Source: Escherichia coli (GTDB lineage Bacteria; Pseudomonadota; Gammaproteobacteria; Enterobacterales; Enterobacteriaceae). Taken from it: a stretch of DNA of 64,000 bases. A model generated the notes under the pieces. It did not search any database, was not told where the DNA came from, and saw only the letters and a list, made by a program, of their open reading frames with translations. The stretch lies in NCBI RefSeq assembly GCF_965641715.1, contig NZ_OZ282453.1; one strand, given 5' to 3'. The translations under genes and the position numbers were made by a program. This document shows positions 1,706-42,163 of this stretch, in pieces (position 1 is the first letter of the stretch; each line of letters starts with the position of its first letter).

Positions 1706-3115
1706 CTTCCGCGCCGCCTCATACGCTGCCAACGTTTGTACTCTCGCCTCTTTGTGCTCGACTATCGGTTGCGGATAATCCAGCTTCACACCTGCTTTCT
1801 GCGCCCACTTCCACGGCTCATGCACCGATTTCCCCGGTACATTGCGTAGTTCCGGTAGCCACTGGCGGATAAACTCGCCTTCGCGGTCAAATTTCTCGCC
1901 CTGGGTTGTCGGGTTGAAAATACGAAAATACGGCGCTGCATCAGTACCCGTAGAAGCCGCCCACTGCCAGCCACCGTTATTAGCTGCCAAATCACCATCA
2001 ATCAGCTGCGACATGAAATATCGCTCGCCTTCGCGCCAGTCGATCAATAAATCTTTCACCAGAAAACTGGCTGTAATCATCCGTAGCCGGTTATGCATCC
2101 AGCCAGTGCTATTAAGCTGACGCATGGCAGCATCGACAATCGGGTATCCCGTTTTGCCTTCCTGCCAGGCCTGTAAATGTGCGGGATTGCTCTGCCACTG
2201 CACACGATCCGTCCAGGCAATAAACGGACAATGTTTACACAACGAGGGGTGATACGTTATCAGGTGACGGTAAAACTCGCGCCAGATCAGCTCACTAAGC
2301 CAGACACTACCGGCCCCACCGTCCAGCGCCTGCGGCTGTTCCGCCAACAAGCGATGCAAACACTGGCGAGGCGATAACCCGCCCGTTGCCAGGCTGGCGG
2401 ACAAACGACTGGTGCCTTCCACTGCCGGAAAATCTCGTTGTTGCTCATATTCTCCGGCACCGTTCTGGCAAAACTGGCGTAATTGCGCAATCGCCGCTTT
2501 TTCTTCCACCGGGAAATGCGCAGTATCGAAAGACTGACGAGGATAATTCAGCGTAATGGATGGCGCGGGCTTTATCGATCCGCTACTACGAACTTTTGGT
2601 GCAGCGACGCACTCCGGCATCCCTTCCCGCAGCCGTTTCAGCCAGGCATTCTTAAAAGGCGTAAAGACTTTGTACATCTCATGATTGCCGGTCATCACCG
2701 CGCCAGGCGGCAGGATCACGCTGTCATCAAATCCTTCACACACCACGTTACGCAGCGTTCTCTCAACCTGCACATCCCGCGCCCGCTCATTCACCTCATA
2801 CTGATAGTTATAAAAAAGATGAGTAACGCTGTTTTCCGCGCACACCTGTTTAACTATTTCGACGCTGGCGGCAAAGTCATCCACTTCACGGAACAATAAA
2901 GGAATGCCTTTTTCCGCCAGCGCGATTTGTAGCCCGTTCAGTTGAGCATTGATAAGTTCAGCCTGACGCGGCGACATATTATGCGCCGCCCACTGGCGTG
3001 GTGTAGCGATATACAACGCCAGCACGCGTGCAGACGAATTGCGGCAGGCGGCAGCCAGCGCGAGATTATCATGCAGACGTAAATCCTGGCGAAACCAGAC
3101 CAGATGGGTAGTCAT
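1697..3115 (-). CDS. phr: deoxyribodipyrimidine photolyase (472 aa)
   Basis: ORF begins MTTHLVWFRQDLRLHDN and contains the FAD-binding C-terminal photolyase motifs; its start overlaps the ybgA stop by 4 nt. Confidence 0.95.
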   Translation of the reverse strand: MTTHLVWFRQDLRLHDNLALAAACRNSSARVLALYIATPRQWAAHNMSPRQAELINAQLNGLQIALAEKGIPLLFREVDDFAASVEIVKQVCAENSVTHLFYNYQYEVNERARDVQVERTLRNVVCEGFDDSVILPPGAVMTGNHEMYKVFTPFKNAWLKRLREGMPECVAAPKVRSSGSIKPAPSITLNYPRQSFDTAHFPVEEKAAIAQLRQFCQNGAGEYEQQRDFPAVEGTSRLSASLATGGLSPRQCLHRLLAEQPQALDGGAGSVWLSELIWREFYRHLITYHPSLCKHCPFIAWTDRVQWQSNPAHLQAWQEGKTGYPIVDAAMRQLNSTGWMHNRLRMITASFLVKDLLIDWREGERYFMSQLIDGDLAANNGGWQWAASTGTDAAPYFRIFNPTTQGEKFDREGEFIRQWLPELRNVPGKSVHEPWKWAQKAGVKLDYPQPIVEHKEARVQTLAAYEAARKGK

Positions 3116-37722: not shown

Positions 37723-37942
37723 TACCCATCATTAAAATCATCCCATTCAATAAAACCCGCCAAAAATTATCGATCCATCAATAAATACATCACCGTACCC
37801 TCCTCTTTTTCACAAATCAGCAATCACCATTACGTTTTTTATTTTTTCACCGCCAAATCGCTTGCGCATAGTGCTGCTTTGCGGCATTTTTTTAAACAAG
37901 CAAACACAACAAGCAACAAATACCAGGTTAACGGAGAAGGTT

Positions 37943-39607
37943 ATGTGTTCAATTTTTGGCGTATTCGATATCAAAACAGACGCAGTTGAGCTGCGTAAGA
38001 AAGCACTCGAGCTGTCACGCCTGATGCGTCATCGTGGCCCGGACTGGTCCGGTATTTATGCCAGTGATAACGCCATTCTCGCCCACGAACGTCTGTCAAT
38101 TGTTGACGTTAACGCGGGGGCGCAACCTCTCTACAACCAACAAAAAACCCACGTACTGGCGGTAAACGGTGAAATCTACAACCACCAGGCATTGCGCGCT
38201 GAATATGGCGATCGTTATCAGTTCCAGACAGGGTCTGACTGTGAAGTGATCCTCGCGCTGTATCAGGAAAAAGGGCCGGAATTTCTCGACGACTTGCAGG
38301 GCATGTTTGCCTTTGCCCTGTACGACAGCGAAAAAGATGCCTACCTGATTGGTCGTGACCATCTGGGGATCATCCCACTGTATATGGGCTATGACGAACA
38401 TGGTCAGCTGTATGTGGCCTCAGAAATGAAAGCCCTCGTGCCGGTATGCCGCACGATTAAAGAGTTCCCGGCGGGGAGCTATTTGTGGAGTCAGGACGGC
38501 GAAATCCGTTCTTATTATCATCGCGACTGGTTCGACTACGATGCGGTGAAAGATAATGTGACCGACAAAAACGAACTGCGTCAGGCACTGGAAGATTCCG
38601 TTAAAAGCCATCTGATGTCTGATGTGCCTTACGGTGTGCTGCTTTCTGGTGGTCTGGATTCCTCAATTATTTCCGCTATCACCAAGAAATACGCAGCCCG
38701 TCGCGTGGAAGATCAGGAACGCTCTGAAGCCTGGTGGCCGCAGTTACACTCCTTTGCTGTAGGTCTGCCGGGCTCACCGGATCTTAAAGCAGCCCAGGAA
38801 GTGGCAAACCATCTGGGCACGGTGCATCACGAAATTCACTTCACTGTACAGGAAGGTCTGGATGCCATCCGCGACGTGATTTACCACATCGAAACCTATG
38901 ATGTGACCACTATTCGCGCTTCAACACCGATGTATTTAATGTCGCGTAAGATCAAAGCGATGGGCATTAAAATGGTGCTGTCCGGTGAAGGTTCTGATGA
39001 AGTGTTCGGCGGTTATCTTTACTTCCACAAAGCACCGAATGCCAAAGAACTGCATGAAGAGACGGTGCGTAAACTGCTGGCCCTGCATATGTATGACTGC
39101 GCGCGTGCCAACAAAGCGATGTCAGCCTGGGGCGTGGAAGCACGCGTTCCGTTCCTCGACAAGAAATTCCTCGACGTGGCGATGCGCATTAACCCGCAGG
39201 ATAAAATGTGCGGTAACGGCAAGATGGAAAAACACATCCTGCGTGAATGTTTTGAGTCATACCTGCCCGCAAGCGTGGCCTGGCGGCAGAAAGAGCAGTT
39301 CTCCGATGGCGTCGGTTACAGTTGGATCGACACCCTGAAAGAAGTGGCGGCGCAGCAGGTTTCTGATCAACAGCTGGAAACTGCCCGCTTCCGCTTCCCG
39401 TACAACACACCGAGCTCAAAAGAAGCGTATCTGTACCGGGAGATCTTTGAAGAACTATTCCCGCTTCCGAGCGCCGCTGAGTGCGTGCCGGGCGGTCCTT
39501 CCGTCGCGTGTTCTTCCGCTAAAGCGATCGAATGGGATGAAGCGTTCAAGAAAATGGACGATCCGTCTGGTCGCGCGGTTGGTGTTCACCAGTCGGCGTA
39601 TAAGTAA
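37943..39607 (+). CDS. asnB: asparagine synthetase B, glutamine-hydrolysing (554 aa)
   Basis: Starts MCSIFGVFDIK (N-terminal Cys nucleophile); PP-loop SGGLDSS; the track ORF (TTG at 37862) is an upstream extension. Confidence 0.95.
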   Translation: MCSIFGVFDIKTDAVELRKKALELSRLMRHRGPDWSGIYASDNAILAHERLSIVDVNAGAQPLYNQQKTHVLAVNGEIYNHQALRAEYGDRYQFQTGSDCEVILALYQEKGPEFLDDLQGMFAFALYDSEKDAYLIGRDHLGIIPLYMGYDEHGQLYVASEMKALVPVCRTIKEFPAGSYLWSQDGEIRSYYHRDWFDYDAVKDNVTDKNELRQALEDSVKSHLMSDVPYGVLLSGGLDSSIISAITKKYAARRVEDQERSEAWWPQLHSFAVGLPGSPDLKAAQEVANHLGTVHHEIHFTVQEGLDAIRDVIYHIETYDVTTIRASTPMYLMSRKIKAMGIKMVLSGEGSDEVFGGYLYFHKAPNAKELHEETVRKLLALHMYDCARANKAMSAWGVEARVPFLDKKFLDVAMRINPQDKMCGNGKMEKHILRECFESYLPASVAWRQKEQFSDGVGYSWIDTLKEVAAQQVSDQQLETARFRFPYNTPSSKEAYLYREIFEELFPLPSAAECVPGGPSVACSSAKAIEWDEAFKKMDDPSGRAVGVHQSAYK

Positions 39608-39611
39608 GAAA

Positions 39612-39650
39612 TGCGAAACAGCCCCGGTGAAATCCGGGGCTGTTTCAGTT
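39612..39650 (+). terminator. intrinsic terminator of asnB
   Basis: aaacagccccggtgaaatccggggctgtttcagtt. Confidence 0.7.
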
Positions 39651-39917
39651 ATTGAGGTGCTTGTTGATTCTGATATGCAGTAAGGAAATGTTCCGGGTTT
39701 GCCACATCACTGTTTGACAACTCATCACTGTAGGCCAGTATTTCATAGATTAATTTCCCACCACTATTGTTAAATTCCGAATTTCATCCTGTATGACAAA
39801 AGAATGGCTATAGGGTGGGAAAAAACACAAAGTAAACAATAATTGACGAATATAGCGCCACGCTGTTCGCAACCTAACCAAACAGTCACTTTCGAGCAAT
39901 TTTCCTTGAAAAAGAGG

Positions 39918-39953
39918 TTGACGCTGCAAGGCTCTATACGCATAATGCGCCCC
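39918..39953 (+). promoter_or_regulatory. metT tRNA-operon promoter (-35 TTGACG, 17-bp spacer, -10 CATAAT, GC-rich discriminator)
   Basis: ttgacgctgcaaggctctatacgcataatgcgcccc about 35 nt upstream of the first tRNA; a GC-rich discriminator is typical of stringently controlled stable-RNA promoters. Confidence 0.65.
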
Positions 39954-39986
39954 GCAACGCCGATAAGGTATCGCGAAAAAAAAGAT

Positions 39987-40063
39987 GGCTACGTAGCTCA
40001 GTTGGTTAGAGCACATCACTCATAATGATGGGGTCACAGGTTCGAATCCCGTCGTAGCCACCA
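39987..40063 (+). tRNA. metT: tRNA-Met (elongator, anticodon CAT)
   Basis: ggctacgtagctcagttggttagagc...gtcgtagccacca; cloverleaf with CAT anticodon and encoded CCA. Confidence 0.95.
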
Positions 40064-40071
40064 TCTTTTTT

Positions 40072-40156
40072 GCGGGAGTGGCGAAATTGGTAGACGCACC
40101 AGATTTAGGTTCTGGCGCCGCAAGGTGTGCGAGTTCAAGTCTCGCCTCCCGCACCA
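40072..40156 (+). tRNA. leuW: tRNA-Leu (anticodon TAG), class II with long variable arm
   Basis: gcgggagtggcgaaattggtagacgc...ctcgcctcccgcacca, 85 nt. Confidence 0.93.
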
Positions 40157-40179
40157 TTCACCAGAAAGCGTTGTACGGA

Positions 40180-40254
40180 TGGGGTATCGCCAAGCGGTAA
40201 GGCACCGGTTTTTGATACCGGCATTCCCTGGTTCGAATCCAGGTACCCCAGCCA
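40180..40254 (+). tRNA. glnU: tRNA-Gln (anticodon TTG)
   Basis: tggggtatcgccaagcggtaaggcaccggtttttgataccgg...cccagcca. Confidence 0.93.
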
Positions 40255-40288
40255 TCTTCTTCGAGTAAGTGGTTCACCGCCCGGTTAT

Positions 40289-40363
40289 TGGGGTATCGCC
40301 AAGCGGTAAGGCACCGGTTTTTGATACCGGCATTCCCTGGTTCGAATCCAGGTACCCCAGCCA
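40289..40363 (+). tRNA. glnW: tRNA-Gln (anticodon TTG), identical copy of glnU
   Basis: Identical 75-nt sequence to the glnU copy. Confidence 0.93.
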
Positions 40364-40378
40364 TCGAAGAAACAATCT

Positions 40379-40455
40379 GGCTACGTAGCTCAGTTGGTTA
40401 GAGCACATCACTCATAATGATGGGGTCACAGGTTCGAATCCCGTCGTAGCCACCA
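40379..40455 (+). tRNA. metU: tRNA-Met (elongator, anticodon CAT), identical copy of metT
   Basis: Identical 77-nt sequence to metT. Confidence 0.93.
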
Positions 40456-40501
40456 AATTCTGAGTGTGTCGAATATGTTCGGCAAATTCAAAACCAATTT
40501 G

Positions 40502-40576
40502 TTGGGGTATCGCCAAGCGGTAAGGCACCGGATTCTGATTCCGGCATTCCGAGGTTCGAATCCTCGTACCCCAGCC
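40502..40576 (+). tRNA. glnV: tRNA-Gln (anticodon CTG)
   Basis: tggggtatcgccaagcggtaaggcaccggattctgattccgg...cccagcca. Confidence 0.93.
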
Positions 40577-40614
40577 AATTTATTCAAGACGCTTACCTTG
40601 TAAGTGCACCCAGT

Positions 40615-40689
40615 TGGGGTATCGCCAAGCGGTAAGGCACCGGATTCTGATTCCGGCATTCCGAGGTTCGAATCCTCGTACCCCAGCCA
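40615..40689 (+). tRNA. glnX: tRNA-Gln (anticodon CTG), identical copy of glnV
   Basis: Identical 75-nt sequence to glnV. Confidence 0.93.
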
Positions 40690-40691
40690 CA

Positions 40692-40722
40692 TTAAAAAAG
40701 CTCGCTTCGGCGAGCTTTTTGC
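40692..40722 (+). terminator. intrinsic terminator of the tRNA operon
   Basis: aaaaaagctcgcttcggcgagctttttgc: 6-bp stem, tetraloop, T-run. Confidence 0.8.
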
Positions 40723-40740
40723 TTTTCTGCGTTCATTCAA

Positions 40741-40835
40741 TGTCGAATGCGATGTTGACACGTCTTATCCTTCAATGTCGGATGCGACGCTGCCGCGTCT
40801 TATCCGACCTACGGTTGGCACGCATCCGGCAATGT
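40741..40835. repeat. REP/BIME cluster between the tRNA operon and ubiF
   Basis: tgtcgaatgcgatgttgacacgtcttatcc..., gtcggatgcgacgctgccgcgtcttatccgacctac and cgcatccggca. Confidence 0.7.
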
Positions 40836-40842
40836 TGTAAGG

Positions 40843-42018
40843 CTACAACCCTAACGCATATTTCAGCGCCTGACGTTTCAACACGCCAGCACGCTCCGCC
40901 GCCATCAAACCAAGATTACGCACAAAACGCAGCGGCGGCAGATTATTACTGAATCCGGCATAAAACAGATCCATACCGCTCTGCATAATGAAGTTATCCG
41001 CCATGCGCCGCATCTGGTAACGCTTGAGGACAGGATAACTGGCCCACGCTTCGCTGTAGCTGCGGGCATTCACCAGAACATCAATCAGGGCATCGACATC
41101 ACGATAACCAAGATTCACCCCCTGCCCCGCCAGCGGATGGATGGTATGCGCGGCATCGCCCACCAGCGCAAGCCCTGGCTGCACATACTGCAACGCATGG
41201 CGACGCGTCAGCGGAAACGCACCAGCGGCAAGCGGTGTAACGTAACCCAGACGCGACGGGAAATGCTTCGCGATTTCCGCCTGGAGCTGTGCCATATTCA
41301 TATTCTGCAACTGGCGAATACGCGCCGGAGAGTCATACCACACCAGCGATGCCCAGTTATCAAACAACGGCAGAAACGCACGCGGTCCGTCCGGAGTAAA
41401 TTGCTGCCAGGTGCTATCGCCGGGATCGTTCTCGCACTGGACGCTAATCAACATGCACGACTGCGCATACTGCCATGCATGAACGCCAATTCCCGCCATC
41501 TGCCGCACCTGCGAATTTGCGCCGTCGGCACCAATCACCAGCTTCGCGCGAATCACTTCACCGCCTTTCAGCTCCAGCTCCTGAAGATCATTATCTCGAT
41601 GTAATGCAATCAGCGAGCCTGGCACACGTAACGTTACTTTCGGATGCGCTTCCAGCGCCTGCCACAATGCCTGTTGCAGGACAGTGTTTTCTACCATATA
41701 GCCAAGCAACGGCAACTTTAATTCGGCTGCGTCAAATACCACATGCGCCGTTTCCCACTCCCACGTTTCCAGTCTGCGGTAAGGATGGCAACGCATAGCC
41801 TGTACTGCATCCCAGACCCCTAACCCTTTAAGCAATGATACCGAAGCCGCGCTGATCGCCGAGATCCGCACGTCCGGTTGGCTATCAGCGACAAACGGTG
41901 CAGGTTCTGCGTGCTCGATCACCGTTACCGTAAATCCGTGCTGTGCCAGCCCCAGCGCCAGTGCGCCGCCGACCATTCCTCCGCCGACAATGGCAATTTC
42001 CGTTGGTTGATTTGTCAT
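40843..42018 (-). CDS. ubiF: FAD-dependent ubiquinone-biosynthesis monooxygenase UbiF (391 aa; track ORF starts 2 codons upstream)
   Basis: MTNQPTEIAIVGGGMVGGALA Rossmann FAD-binding fold; class A flavin monooxygenase. Confidence 0.93.
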   Translation of the reverse strand: MTNQPTEIAIVGGGMVGGALALGLAQHGFTVTVIEHAEPAPFVADSQPDVRISAISAASVSLLKGLGVWDAVQAMRCHPYRRLETWEWETAHVVFDAAELKLPLLGYMVENTVLQQALWQALEAHPKVTLRVPGSLIALHRDNDLQELELKGGEVIRAKLVIGADGANSQVRQMAGIGVHAWQYAQSCMLISVQCENDPGDSTWQQFTPDGPRAFLPLFDNWASLVWYDSPARIRQLQNMNMAQLQAEIAKHFPSRLGYVTPLAAGAFPLTRRHALQYVQPGLALVGDAAHTIHPLAGQGVNLGYRDVDALIDVLVNARSYSEAWASYPVLKRYQMRRMADNFIMQSGMDLFYAGFSNNLPPLRFVRNLGLMAAERAGVLKRQALKYALGL

Positions 42019-42163
42019 GGTCAATCATCCTGTTAGCAATATGCTTTAAGTTTACAGGATTTTTACCCCCAAGGGCTGATAACGCTCATACTGGTCACAA
42101 CGGCAGCAAAGCATTACACTATGCGCCCTGCATTCCTGGCTACTATTTCGCAAGAGCAAGTCG

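Follow-up and report, generated by a model that had tools for sequence, protein, structure and literature searches.

The feature at positions 39918-40722 of the 64,000-nucleotide stretch of Escherichia coli DNA analysed here (the window) is the long-known seven-tRNA metT operon of this species (metT-leuW-glnUW-metU-glnVX), in its ordinary form. Taken together, the observations make it very likely that this known operon has a single promoter, that its array grew stepwise and that its copies were homogenised, probably by gene conversion and selection. The operon is also called the supB-E tRNA operon, and its sequence was reportedly first determined by Nakajima, Ozeki and Shimura (1981). It has since been characterised experimentally, including its processing, essentiality and suppressor alleles; the copy in the window holds nothing new and carries little weight as a discovery.

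The tRNA genes were called with ARAGORN and with the Rfam tRNA model RF00005 (gathering score of 29). RF00005 gave seven matches on the plus strand, all exceeding the threshold (57.6 to 71.1 bits; E-values of 1e-11 to 1e-14), and the ARAGORN anticodons agreed with these matches for all seven genes. A preliminary description had proposed a seven-tRNA operon at 39918-40722 and had specified the isotypes, anticodons, order and identical pairs of its genes. Each of these points was upheld by ARAGORN, RF00005 and direct comparison of the sequences; the coordinates were accurate, and calling the isotypes and anticodons again, which could have refuted the proposal, revealed no disagreement. The gene names were confirmed by synteny with K-12 MG1655, as follows:

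39987-40063, plus strand: metT, elongator tRNA-Met(CAU) (ARAGORN, RF00005; synteny with K-12 b0673).
40072-40156, plus strand: leuW, tRNA-Leu(UAG) (ARAGORN, RF00005; synteny with K-12 b0672).
40180-40254, plus strand: glnU, tRNA-Gln(UUG) (ARAGORN, RF00005; synteny with K-12 b0670).
40289-40363, plus strand: glnW, tRNA-Gln(UUG), identical to glnU (ARAGORN, RF00005, direct comparison; synteny with K-12 b0668).
40379-40455, plus strand: metU, elongator tRNA-Met(CAU), identical to metT (ARAGORN, RF00005, direct comparison; synteny with K-12 b0666).
40503-40577, plus strand: glnV, tRNA-Gln(CUG), wild-type anticodon at 40535-40537 (ARAGORN, RF00005; synteny with K-12 b0665).
40615-40689, plus strand: glnX, tRNA-Gln(CUG), identical to glnV, wild-type anticodon at 40647-40649 (ARAGORN, RF00005, direct comparison; synteny with K-12 b0664).

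The plus-strand order between 39987 and 40689, Met(CAU)-Leu(UAG)-Gln(UUG)x2-Met(CAU)-Gln(CUG)x2, is that of K-12 b0673 to b0664. The genes are separated by spacers of 8 to 47 nt, and the CCA end is gene-encoded in all seven. The UUG and CUG glutamine genes differ at seven positions, namely the wobble base and three two-sided base-pair swaps (30:38, 49:63 and 50:62, gene numbering).

The open reading frame at 37862-39607 (plus strand) is asnB, located upstream and on the same strand as the operon, and the convergent open reading frame at 40843-42024 (minus strand), located downstream, is ubiF. These assignments were based on colinearity with the annotated K-12 and Combat11I9 regions and on tblastn matches to annotated loci. 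Gene order and flanks correspond to K-12 NC_000913.3, 696430-697133. The identification could have failed on the cloverleaf model or on the neighbouring genes; all seven tRNAs fit the former, and asnB and ubiF were found on either side. Between 39600 and 40900, the listing of open reading frames contained no candidate protein gene, only mechanical frames overlapping the tRNA genes. The operon was matched in 5424 of 5426 complete E. coli genomes, with at least 99% identity in 5116, and a single place covered at least 80% of the query in 5356 of the 5424 genomes with a match. The nearest complete genomes were 99.8% identical (over 1201 and 831 bases). In one E. coli genome, CEA224S (NZ_CP166080.1), precisely the seven tRNA genes are missing; given that the operon is essential, an assembly artefact is the likely cause. 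The plasmid collection provided no evidence for a mobile copy of the operon; most of the matches were to records that bear a plasmid label but are of chromosome size or are chromosome fragments.

Signals for transcription and processing were assigned at the following positions:

39909-39913, plus strand: A-tract directly 5' of the -35 hexamer, putative proximal UP-element subsite (conservation).
39918-39946, plus strand: sigma-70 promoter, with -35 hexamer TTGACG (39918-39923), 17-bp spacer and -10 hexamer CATAAT (39941-39946) (promoter scan, 10 of 12 matches).
39947-39969, plus strand: GC-rich discriminator and start of the transcribed leader, GCGCCCCGCAACGCCGATAAGGT (near-invariance in five families).
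40578-40614, plus strand: glnV-glnX spacer, made up of a single-stranded A/U-rich part and, 3' of it, a small hairpin, CGCTTA...TAAGTG (RNAalifold).
40695-40730, plus strand: intrinsic terminator, AAAAAGCUCGC-UUCG-GCGAGCUUUUU, then GCUUUUCUGC (hairpin of 11 pairs with a 4-base loop, and U-run).

The combination TTGACG-17-CATAAT was the sole sigma-70-like site detected by the promoter scan between 39000 and 41500. The promoter proposed in the preliminary description was thus recovered with all its elements, a -35 hexamer matching at five of six positions, a 17-bp spacer and a GC-rich discriminator, and so was the strong terminator proposed 3' of glnX, in the form of a stable GC-rich hairpin with a T-run directly after it. 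The hairpin (40695-40720) had a folding energy of -17.9 kcal/mol (z = -4.2), a stability that no shuffled sequence out of 200 attained. Among the aligned Enterobacterales loci, both promoter hexamers were invariant from Escherichia to Budvicia; the -35 hexamer reads TTGACG in Yersinia, Arsenophonus and Klebsiella and TTGACT in Providencia. The terminator 3' of the last glutamine gene was also conserved in other genera, with two-sided changes in Enterobacter (GCCCGC..GCGGGC). Conservation of promoter and terminator spans the Enterobacteriaceae, Erwiniaceae, Yersiniaceae, Budviciaceae and Morganellaceae. The A-tract upstream of the -35 hexamer (AAAAA, 39909-39913) was invariant in nine of nine aligned Enterobacterales loci, the adjacent bases being variable, and recurred in Yersinia, Providencia, Arsenophonus and Klebsiella; it is possibly a proximal UP-element subsite. 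The sequence GCGCCCCGC follows the -10 hexamer, and GCGCCCC, which comes directly after this hexamer, is identical to the discriminator of K-12 tyrT. A GC-rich discriminator of this kind is typical of stable-RNA promoters controlled by growth rate and ppGpp. Transcription would start at about G39954; the +1 position of tyrT is the equivalent G. The precursor used in vitro in PMC3985628 starts at CGCAACGCC.

As judged from the sequence, the promoter at 39918-39946 would drive all seven tRNA genes, and transcription from about 39954 to the hairpin and U-run at about 40720-40730 would generate one precursor about 770 nt long. Co-transcription of the seven genes as one polycistronic precursor fits the presence of one promoter-like site, one terminator and short spacers. 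In K-12, northern analysis revealed one polycistronic precursor, which is processed by RNase E and RNase P; the terminator is carried by the full-length transcript and taken off by RNase E, which also separates glnV from glnX (PMC2241853). The transcript of the operon would be expected to follow the route published for K-12, in which RNase E removes the terminator and cuts 3' of metU (PMC2241853; PMC3985628), the upstream tRNAs are next released from one another by RNase P, which also generates all mature 5' ends, and exonucleases trim the 3' ends to the encoded CCA. For the glnV-glnX spacers of seven Enterobacteriaceae, RNAalifold predicted a hairpin of six pairs, three of which were changed on both sides and none of which was broken, with the exception of one gap. 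This hairpin may be connected with cleavage by RNase E. Every elongator tRNA-Met gene and all four tRNA-Gln genes of K-12 belong to the operon, as does the tRNA-Leu(UAG) gene; the operon is essential (PMC11480407).

The designation of glnV as the classical supE locus in the preliminary description agrees with the old nomenclature (glnV44 being supE44) but not with the position of the CTA anticodon in sequenced strains. At least 40 K-12 laboratory derivatives carry this anticodon in the distal copy, glnX (100% match), and only two K-12 laboratory genomes, J53 (NZ_CP028702.1) and ATCC 98082 (NZ_CP034658.1), in the proximal copy, glnV. PMC4444293, citing Singaravelan et al. 2010, reassigns the sequenced supE44 lesion to glnX. 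The lesion is a G-to-A change equivalent to position 40649 of the window, and users of the designation glnV44/supE44 should note that it affects the distal copy in most sequenced laboratory strains. Conversion between the identical glnV and glnX could have moved the CTA allele in J53 and ATCC 98082, where an independent mutation or misassembly are the alternatives, and the copy number varies among natural isolates; both would fit recombination on a short timescale. The CCGATAAGG leader motif, common to metT and tyrT, and the covarying glnV-glnX spacer hairpin are candidate processing or regulatory signals. We consider it doubtful, on balance, that the array is an active short-timescale site of unequal recombination and gene conversion and that the leader motif and the spacer hairpin are undescribed signals.

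The identity of the paired copies has probably been maintained by gene conversion in combination with purifying selection. The CUG genes differ at 4 to 10 positions between genera, and both copies are identical within the genomes of Escherichia, Klebsiella, Citrobacter and Kluyvera. One type of CUG gene is common to Escherichia, Klebsiella and Superficieibacter, and another to Citrobacter and Kluyvera; in Enterobacter and Lelliottia the two CUG copies differ. Likewise, both UUG copies carry the pair change G5A:C68T in Tatumella, as they do in Yersinia. Strong purifying selection since an old duplication could in principle have preserved identity in the absence of gene conversion: tRNAs evolve under tight constraint, one Gln(UUG) sequence is shared by Escherichia, Citrobacter, Enterobacter, Klebsiella and Serratia, and a single elongator Met core sequence recurs in much of the Gammaproteobacteria among the matches listed. 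However, selection alone would require parallel identical substitutions in both copies, case by case, to account for the lineage-specific changes shared by the two CUG copies in the four genera mentioned above and for the double change shared by the UUG copies of Tatumella and Yersinia. We therefore regard this explanation as unlikely and retain conversion combined with selection. A literature search on the concerted evolution of E. coli tRNA operons returned nothing specific to the metT locus, which provides a compact case of concerted evolution of tRNA genes.

The origin of the array was examined by comparison with relatives, for which at least 120 genome stretches were scanned and about 20 Enterobacterales loci were compared, four of these loci coming from records labelled as plasmids. 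E. albertii, Citrobacter, Enterobacter and Klebsiella share the seven-gene layout. At the asnB-ubiF locus, Yersinia, Serratia oryzae and Tatumella harbor Met-Leu-Gln-Gln-Met-Gln(CUG), and the array of Providencia is Met-Leu-Gln-Gln-Met-Gln(UUG). Budvicia contains Met-Leu-Gln-Gln followed by a second promoter, which is a copy of the first, and Met-Leu-Gln. The array is Met-Leu-Gln(-Gln) in more distant Gammaproteobacteria and Met-Gln-Gln-Met-Leu-Gln, adjoining ubiF, in Zobellella. Array size varies further, from two genes in Rahnella bruchi to five in Arsenophonus, six in E. coli strain 361 and eight in Superficieibacter, where the Gln(CUG) genes number three and their spacer is repeated exactly. 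Among the sampled matches listed, the gene next after Met was Leu(UAG) in 44 loci and Gln in 23. These arrangements suggest that Leu is part of the recurrent unit and that the seventh gene is a later addition in the Enterobacteriaceae.

The array may accordingly have expanded in situ from an old gammaproteobacterial core, Met-Leu-Gln(-Gln). A second Met gene and one Gln gene would have been added to the core, the added Gln gene would have switched its anticodon from UUG to CUG, and the CUG gene would have been doubled in the Enterobacteriaceae. Comparison of the layouts favors this stepwise growth over duplication of a single Met-Gln-Gln block. Several points bear against the stepwise scenario: the taxa sampled are few, the six genes of Yersinia, Serratia and Tatumella could mean that a seventh was lost, arrays of this type readily gain and lose genes, and the phylogenetic signal in 75-nt genes is small.

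The preliminary description had instead envisaged an ancient tandem duplication of a Met-Gln-Gln unit followed by divergence of the anticodons. The latter part is plausible, Providencia holding UUG where others hold CUG; the former was not borne out as stated. Under such a duplication, the second Gln pair would have changed from UUG to CUG and leuW would have been inserted into the first unit, or else the unit contained Leu and its second copy lost it. The symmetrical layout of the array in the window and the identity of its Met genes and Gln pairs speak for this explanation, as does the existence of Met-Gln-Gln runs (in Zobellella, next to ubiF). Repeats within the window end 2 to 9 bases from the gene borders; their weak extension past the genes, with six of nine bases alike upstream of both Met genes, is a further point in its favor. 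However, alignment of the spacers, the check that had been suggested for the duplication, revealed no significant similarity among 21 pairs within the window, the best p values (0.028 and 0.041) not being significant after multiple testing. Whole numbers of a Met-Gln-Gln unit were not encountered in relatives, which carried Met-Leu-Gln-Gln-Met-Gln, Met-Leu-Gln-Gln plus Met-Leu-Gln, or Met-Leu-Gln(-Gln) instead. The widespread adjacency is Met-Leu-Gln rather than Met-Gln-Gln, a single Gln follows the second Met in four genera outside the Enterobacteriaceae (Yersinia, Serratia, Tatumella and Providencia), and in Budvicia the second unit, Met-Leu-Gln, has a promoter copy of its own. A tandem duplication of truly recent date also has a different appearance, as illustrated by Superficieibacter. 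Duplication of a Met-Gln-Gln block is thus very unlikely. The symmetrical gene order alone is not evidence for it, and the loci of related genera point to stepwise growth followed by homogenisation.

Recent duplication within Escherichia, to which the complete identity of each pair and the known gain and loss of copies at this locus (the third CUG gene of Superficieibacter, the missing gene of strain 361) could be attributed, was rejected as the source of copy identity and is extremely improbable, since the spacers of the window are mutually unrelated, the seven-gene layout occurs in the four other taxa listed above, and orthology of the glnU-glnW and metU-glnV spacers extends across genera of the Enterobacteriaceae (p < 0.001 to 0.004). 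The glnV-glnX spacer is a positional homologue, which speaks for concerted evolution of the two genes on either side of it. Local alignment of the window copy with those of E. albertii, Enterobacter and Klebsiella was not significant (p of 0.6 to 0.8), and the homology is based on the conserved ends and the covarying hairpin of the multiple alignment.

Comparison with known systems places the window closest to the K-12 metT operon, which has the same seven genes, order, anticodons, asnB/ubiF flanks, promoter and terminator sequences, each tRNA sequence being identical to the window copy. The differences are confined to the spacers (a one-T indel at 40065 between metT and leuW, and changes at 40270, 40464 and 40468) and to an upstream single-nucleotide polymorphism at 39810; none of them is expected to have a functional effect. 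The six-gene arrays of Yersinia pseudotuberculosis, Serratia oryzae, Tatumella ptyseos and Providencia alcalifaciens share with E. coli the promoter, the discriminator, the leader motif and the first five genes, but the second Met gene is followed by a single Gln gene where E. coli has two. In the first three, the position between asnB and ubiF and the terminator 3' of the last Gln gene are also as in E. coli. In Providencia, in contrast, the last Gln gene is UUG rather than CUG and the array is flanked by nag genes; no terminator was evident in its 60-base trailer.

The third comparison is with tyrT (tyrTV) of K-12, a textbook example of a stringently controlled promoter and the one on which the GC-rich discriminator was defined. 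As at metT, the -10 hexamer of tyrT is followed by GCGCCCCGC and, in the early leader, by CCGATAAGG. The elements ATGCGCCCCGC and CCGATAAGG match exactly between the two promoters (pattern ATGCGCCCCGC..C.CCGATAAGG), whereas the 5 to 6 bases between them differ, as do the -35 hexamer (TTTACA in tyrT, TTGACG in metT), the upstream sequence and the remainder of the leader. By its sequence class, the metT promoter may be growth-rate-dependent and subject to negative control by ppGpp/DksA.

The operon in the window is the metT tRNA operon already known from E. coli; all of its testable defining features were found. Seven genes were called by ARAGORN, and all of them were matched by the Rfam tRNA model (57.6-71.1 bits; gathering score, 29).

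tRNA genes of the operon (ARAGORN and Rfam tRNA model)
39987-40063, plus strand, tRNA-Met(CAT)
40072-40156, plus strand, tRNA-Leu(TAG)
40180-40254, plus strand, tRNA-Gln(TTG)
40289-40363, plus strand, tRNA-Gln(TTG)
40379-40455, plus strand, tRNA-Met(CAT)
40503-40577, plus strand, tRNA-Gln(CTG)
40615-40689, plus strand, tRNA-Gln(CTG)

The CCA end is encoded in all seven genes, which are separated by spacers of 8, 23, 34, 15, 47, and 37 nt. Direct comparison showed 100% identity within the Met, Gln(UUG), and Gln(CUG) pairs. The two Gln types differ at seven positions, corresponding to the wobble base and to three base pairs altered on both sides (30:38 in the anticodon stem; 49:63 and 50:62 in the T stem). 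These results agree with the genes and coordinates of the preliminary description. Open reading frames listed over the region were only mechanical overlaps with the tRNA genes.

The region is colinear with positions 696430-697133 of E. coli K-12 MG1655, where the annotated minus-strand genes from ubiF to asnB are glnX, glnV, metU, glnW, glnU, leuW, and metT. All differences from K-12 are located outside the tRNA genes: the metT-leuW spacer is one T shorter, and substitutions are present at 40270, 40464, 40468, and, upstream, at 39810. An 831-bp operon query matched 5424 of 5426 complete E. coli genomes (top identity of 99.8%), with a single place covering at least 80% of the query in 5356 of the former.

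In K-12, the seven genes and the terminator are transcribed together as a single polycistronic RNA. RNase E takes off the terminator and cleaves on the downstream side of metU, RNase P cuts the upstream tRNAs apart and generates mature 5' ends, and 3' ends are completed by RNases T, PH, and D (PMC2241853; PMC3985628). The glnV-glnX spacer (40578-40614) comprises an A/U-rich 5' part followed by a small hairpin, in which three of six pairs have changes on both sides among seven Enterobacteriaceae. This hairpin could be a determinant of the reported RNase E cut between glnV and glnX.

The K-12 unit, which contains all metT/U(CAU), leuW(UAG), glnU/W(UUG), and glnV/X(CUG) genes, could not be deleted without a complementing plasmid (PMC11480407). 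In the complete-genome assembly of E. coli strain CEA224S (NZ_CP166080.1, positions 3060-3100 of the stretch compared, corresponding to window 39986-40690), promoter, leader, and terminator are retained and exactly the seven tRNA genes are absent (junction ...GAAAAAAAAGA|CATTAAAAAAGC...). No second operon-matching place was found in this record. Given that K-12 requires this unit (PMC11480407), the absence is most likely an assembly artefact. The natural isolate 361 (NZ_CM132949.1, positions 1588-2178 of the stretch compared) has six tRNA genes, with one Gln(CUG), compatible with loss of a copy through recombination between glnV and glnX, which are identical.

The preliminary description suggested that the repeated layout arose by tandem duplication of a Met-Gln-Gln unit. 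The check proposed there detected no duplicated spacer sequence among the 21 spacer pairs of the window (best p values of 0.028 and 0.041), and the repeats end 2-9 bases from the gene borders. Species-representative genomes were scanned with the elongator tRNA-Met core, providing at least 120 stretches, and ARAGORN was run on the loci. Among the matches listed, the array adjoins ubiF in Colwellia, Idiomarina, Marisediminitalea, Zobellella, and Vibrio; across Enterobacterales it lies between asnB and ubiF. Because this placement is common to them, the arrays are positional homologues.

Gene order in related arrays
Many Alteromonadales and Gilliamella (among the matches listed): Met-Leu-Gln or Met-Leu-Gln-Gln
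Budvicia: Met-Leu-Gln-Gln, second promoter copy, Met-Leu-Gln; all Gln UUG
Providencia: Met-Leu-Gln-Gln-Met-Gln(UUG)
Yersinia, Serratia oryzae, Tatumella ptyseos: Met-Leu-Gln-Gln-Met-Gln(CUG)
Arsenophonus: Met-Leu-Gln-Gln-Gln(CUG)
Rahnella bruchi: Met-Gln
E. albertii, Citrobacter, Enterobacter, Klebsiella: same seven genes as the window
Superficieibacter: eight genes, including three Gln(CUG); spacer repeated exactly

Among the matches listed, the gene after Met is Leu(UAG) in 44 loci and Gln in 23. The negative spacer comparison and the other arrangements in relatives argue against block duplication. The simplest reading, which we regard as reasonably probable from a direct comparison of about twenty Enterobacterales loci, is that the array began as a Met-Leu-Gln(-Gln) core and grew stepwise. 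A second Met and one Gln would have been gained, the anticodon of the added Gln would have changed from UUG to CUG, and the CUG gene would then have been duplicated in Enterobacteriaceae.

Several arrays have particular features. Superficieibacter electus (comparison stretch L016, 119-481) contains three identical Gln(CUG) genes with an exactly repeated 69-nt spacer, which is how a recent tandem duplication looks at this locus, in contrast to the window. In Budvicia diplopodorum (L036, 10850-11071, minus strand), the 222-nt gap between tRNA genes four and five holds a second promoter-like copy (TTGACG...GATAATGCGCTGCGCAA), and the entire transcription unit, including the promoter, appears to have been duplicated. 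The asnB-ubiF interval of Rahnella bruchi (L020, 7874-8069) contains only Met-Gln(UUG); either Leu(UAG) and any further Gln genes are located elsewhere in the genome or the array has contracted. In Escherichia albertii (L014, 8783-8886), leuW and glnU are 104 nt apart rather than 23 nt; the 81-nt insert starts with TGGGGCATATC, resembling a tRNA-Gln 5' end, is not called as a tRNA by ARAGORN, and may be a decayed gene remnant.

At the loci examined, both CUG genes are identical and of the window type in E. albertii, Klebsiella, and Superficieibacter, identical and of another type (5 differences relative to E. coli) in Citrobacter and Kluyvera, and of two different types in Enterobacter and Lelliottia. 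In Tatumella and Yersinia, both UUG copies harbor the double change G5A:C68T. Purifying selection alone would require parallel identical changes in both copies. Identity within genomes and difference between genera, alongside a homologous spacer with conserved ends and a small hairpin, form the pattern characteristic of gene conversion. This argument is somewhat weakened because local alignments of the glnV-glnX spacer between genera were mostly non-significant; orthology is clear for the glnU-glnW and metU-glnV spacers.

glnV and glnX of the window both have the wild-type CTG anticodon. The assignment of supE to glnV stands as the traditional name, but the usual physical mutation site is glnX: a distal-copy query (glnV-glnX spacer, glnX with CTA, and trailer) matched at 100% in at least 40 K-12 derivatives, including C600, DH5alpha, DH1, RR1, and ER2796. 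The ER2796 genome paper (PMC4444293) locates supE44 in glnX (b0664) and credits this earlier reassignment to Singaravelan et al. 2010. The proximal-copy query (CTA in glnV) matched at 100% only in the K-12-type genomes J53 (NZ_CP028702.1) and ATCC 98082 (NZ_CP034658.1, positions 905-979 of stretch L125), possibly reflecting gene conversion between identical copies, independent mutation, or misassembly.

The last tRNA gene is followed by a terminator, AAAAAGCTCGC-TTCG-GCGAGCTTTTT, then GCTTTTCTGC (-17.9 kcal/mol; z = -4.2; none of 200 shuffles as stable). In most genera examined, a terminator is likewise present after the last Gln gene, and the Enterobacter hairpin is maintained through changes on both sides. 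The interval from the terminator to the ubiF end (40733-40830) contains REP-like elements, including GGATGCGACGCTGCCGCGTCTTATCC (40780-40805), which matches a REP-type pattern with six occurrences in the window and none in shuffles, and a direct repeat (TCATTCAATGTCG and TCCTTCAATGTCG, at 40733 and 40768). On the other flank, a strong 14-pair hairpin at 39614-39647 (GAAACAGCCCCGG...CCGGGGCTGTTTC; listed by the scan on the minus strand), directly past the asnB stop codon, is probably the asnB terminator.

The promoter proposed in the preliminary description, like its terminator, was recovered: TTGACG-17-CATAAT (39918-39946), directly followed by GCGCCCCGC, was the sole sigma-70-like site found by the promoter scan in 39000-41500. 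The metT promoter is strongly conserved. Across nine aligned Enterobacterales loci, there is almost no variation in the two hexamers (-35 TTGACG and -10 CATAAT) or in the 23 bases that come after them (GCGCCCCGCAACGCCGAT-AAGGT), and the flanks are variable, with the same conservation in Yersinia, Providencia, Arsenophonus, and Klebsiella. Transcription would start at about G39954, and a conserved A-tract (39909-39913) may have an UP-like role. The block CACGCTGTTCGCAACCTAACCAAACAGTCAC (39862-39893), 25-55 bp upstream of the -35, is near-invariant across Enterobacteriaceae genera and is a candidate FIS-binding or upstream activating region. From sequence resemblance, the metT promoter is predicted to be under ppGpp/DksA control: tyrT is a standard stringently controlled stable-RNA promoter, and the K-12 tyrT and metT promoters have the -10, discriminator, and early-leader motif in common, with exact matches over ATGCGCCCCGC and CCGATAAGG and differences in the intervening 5-6 bases.
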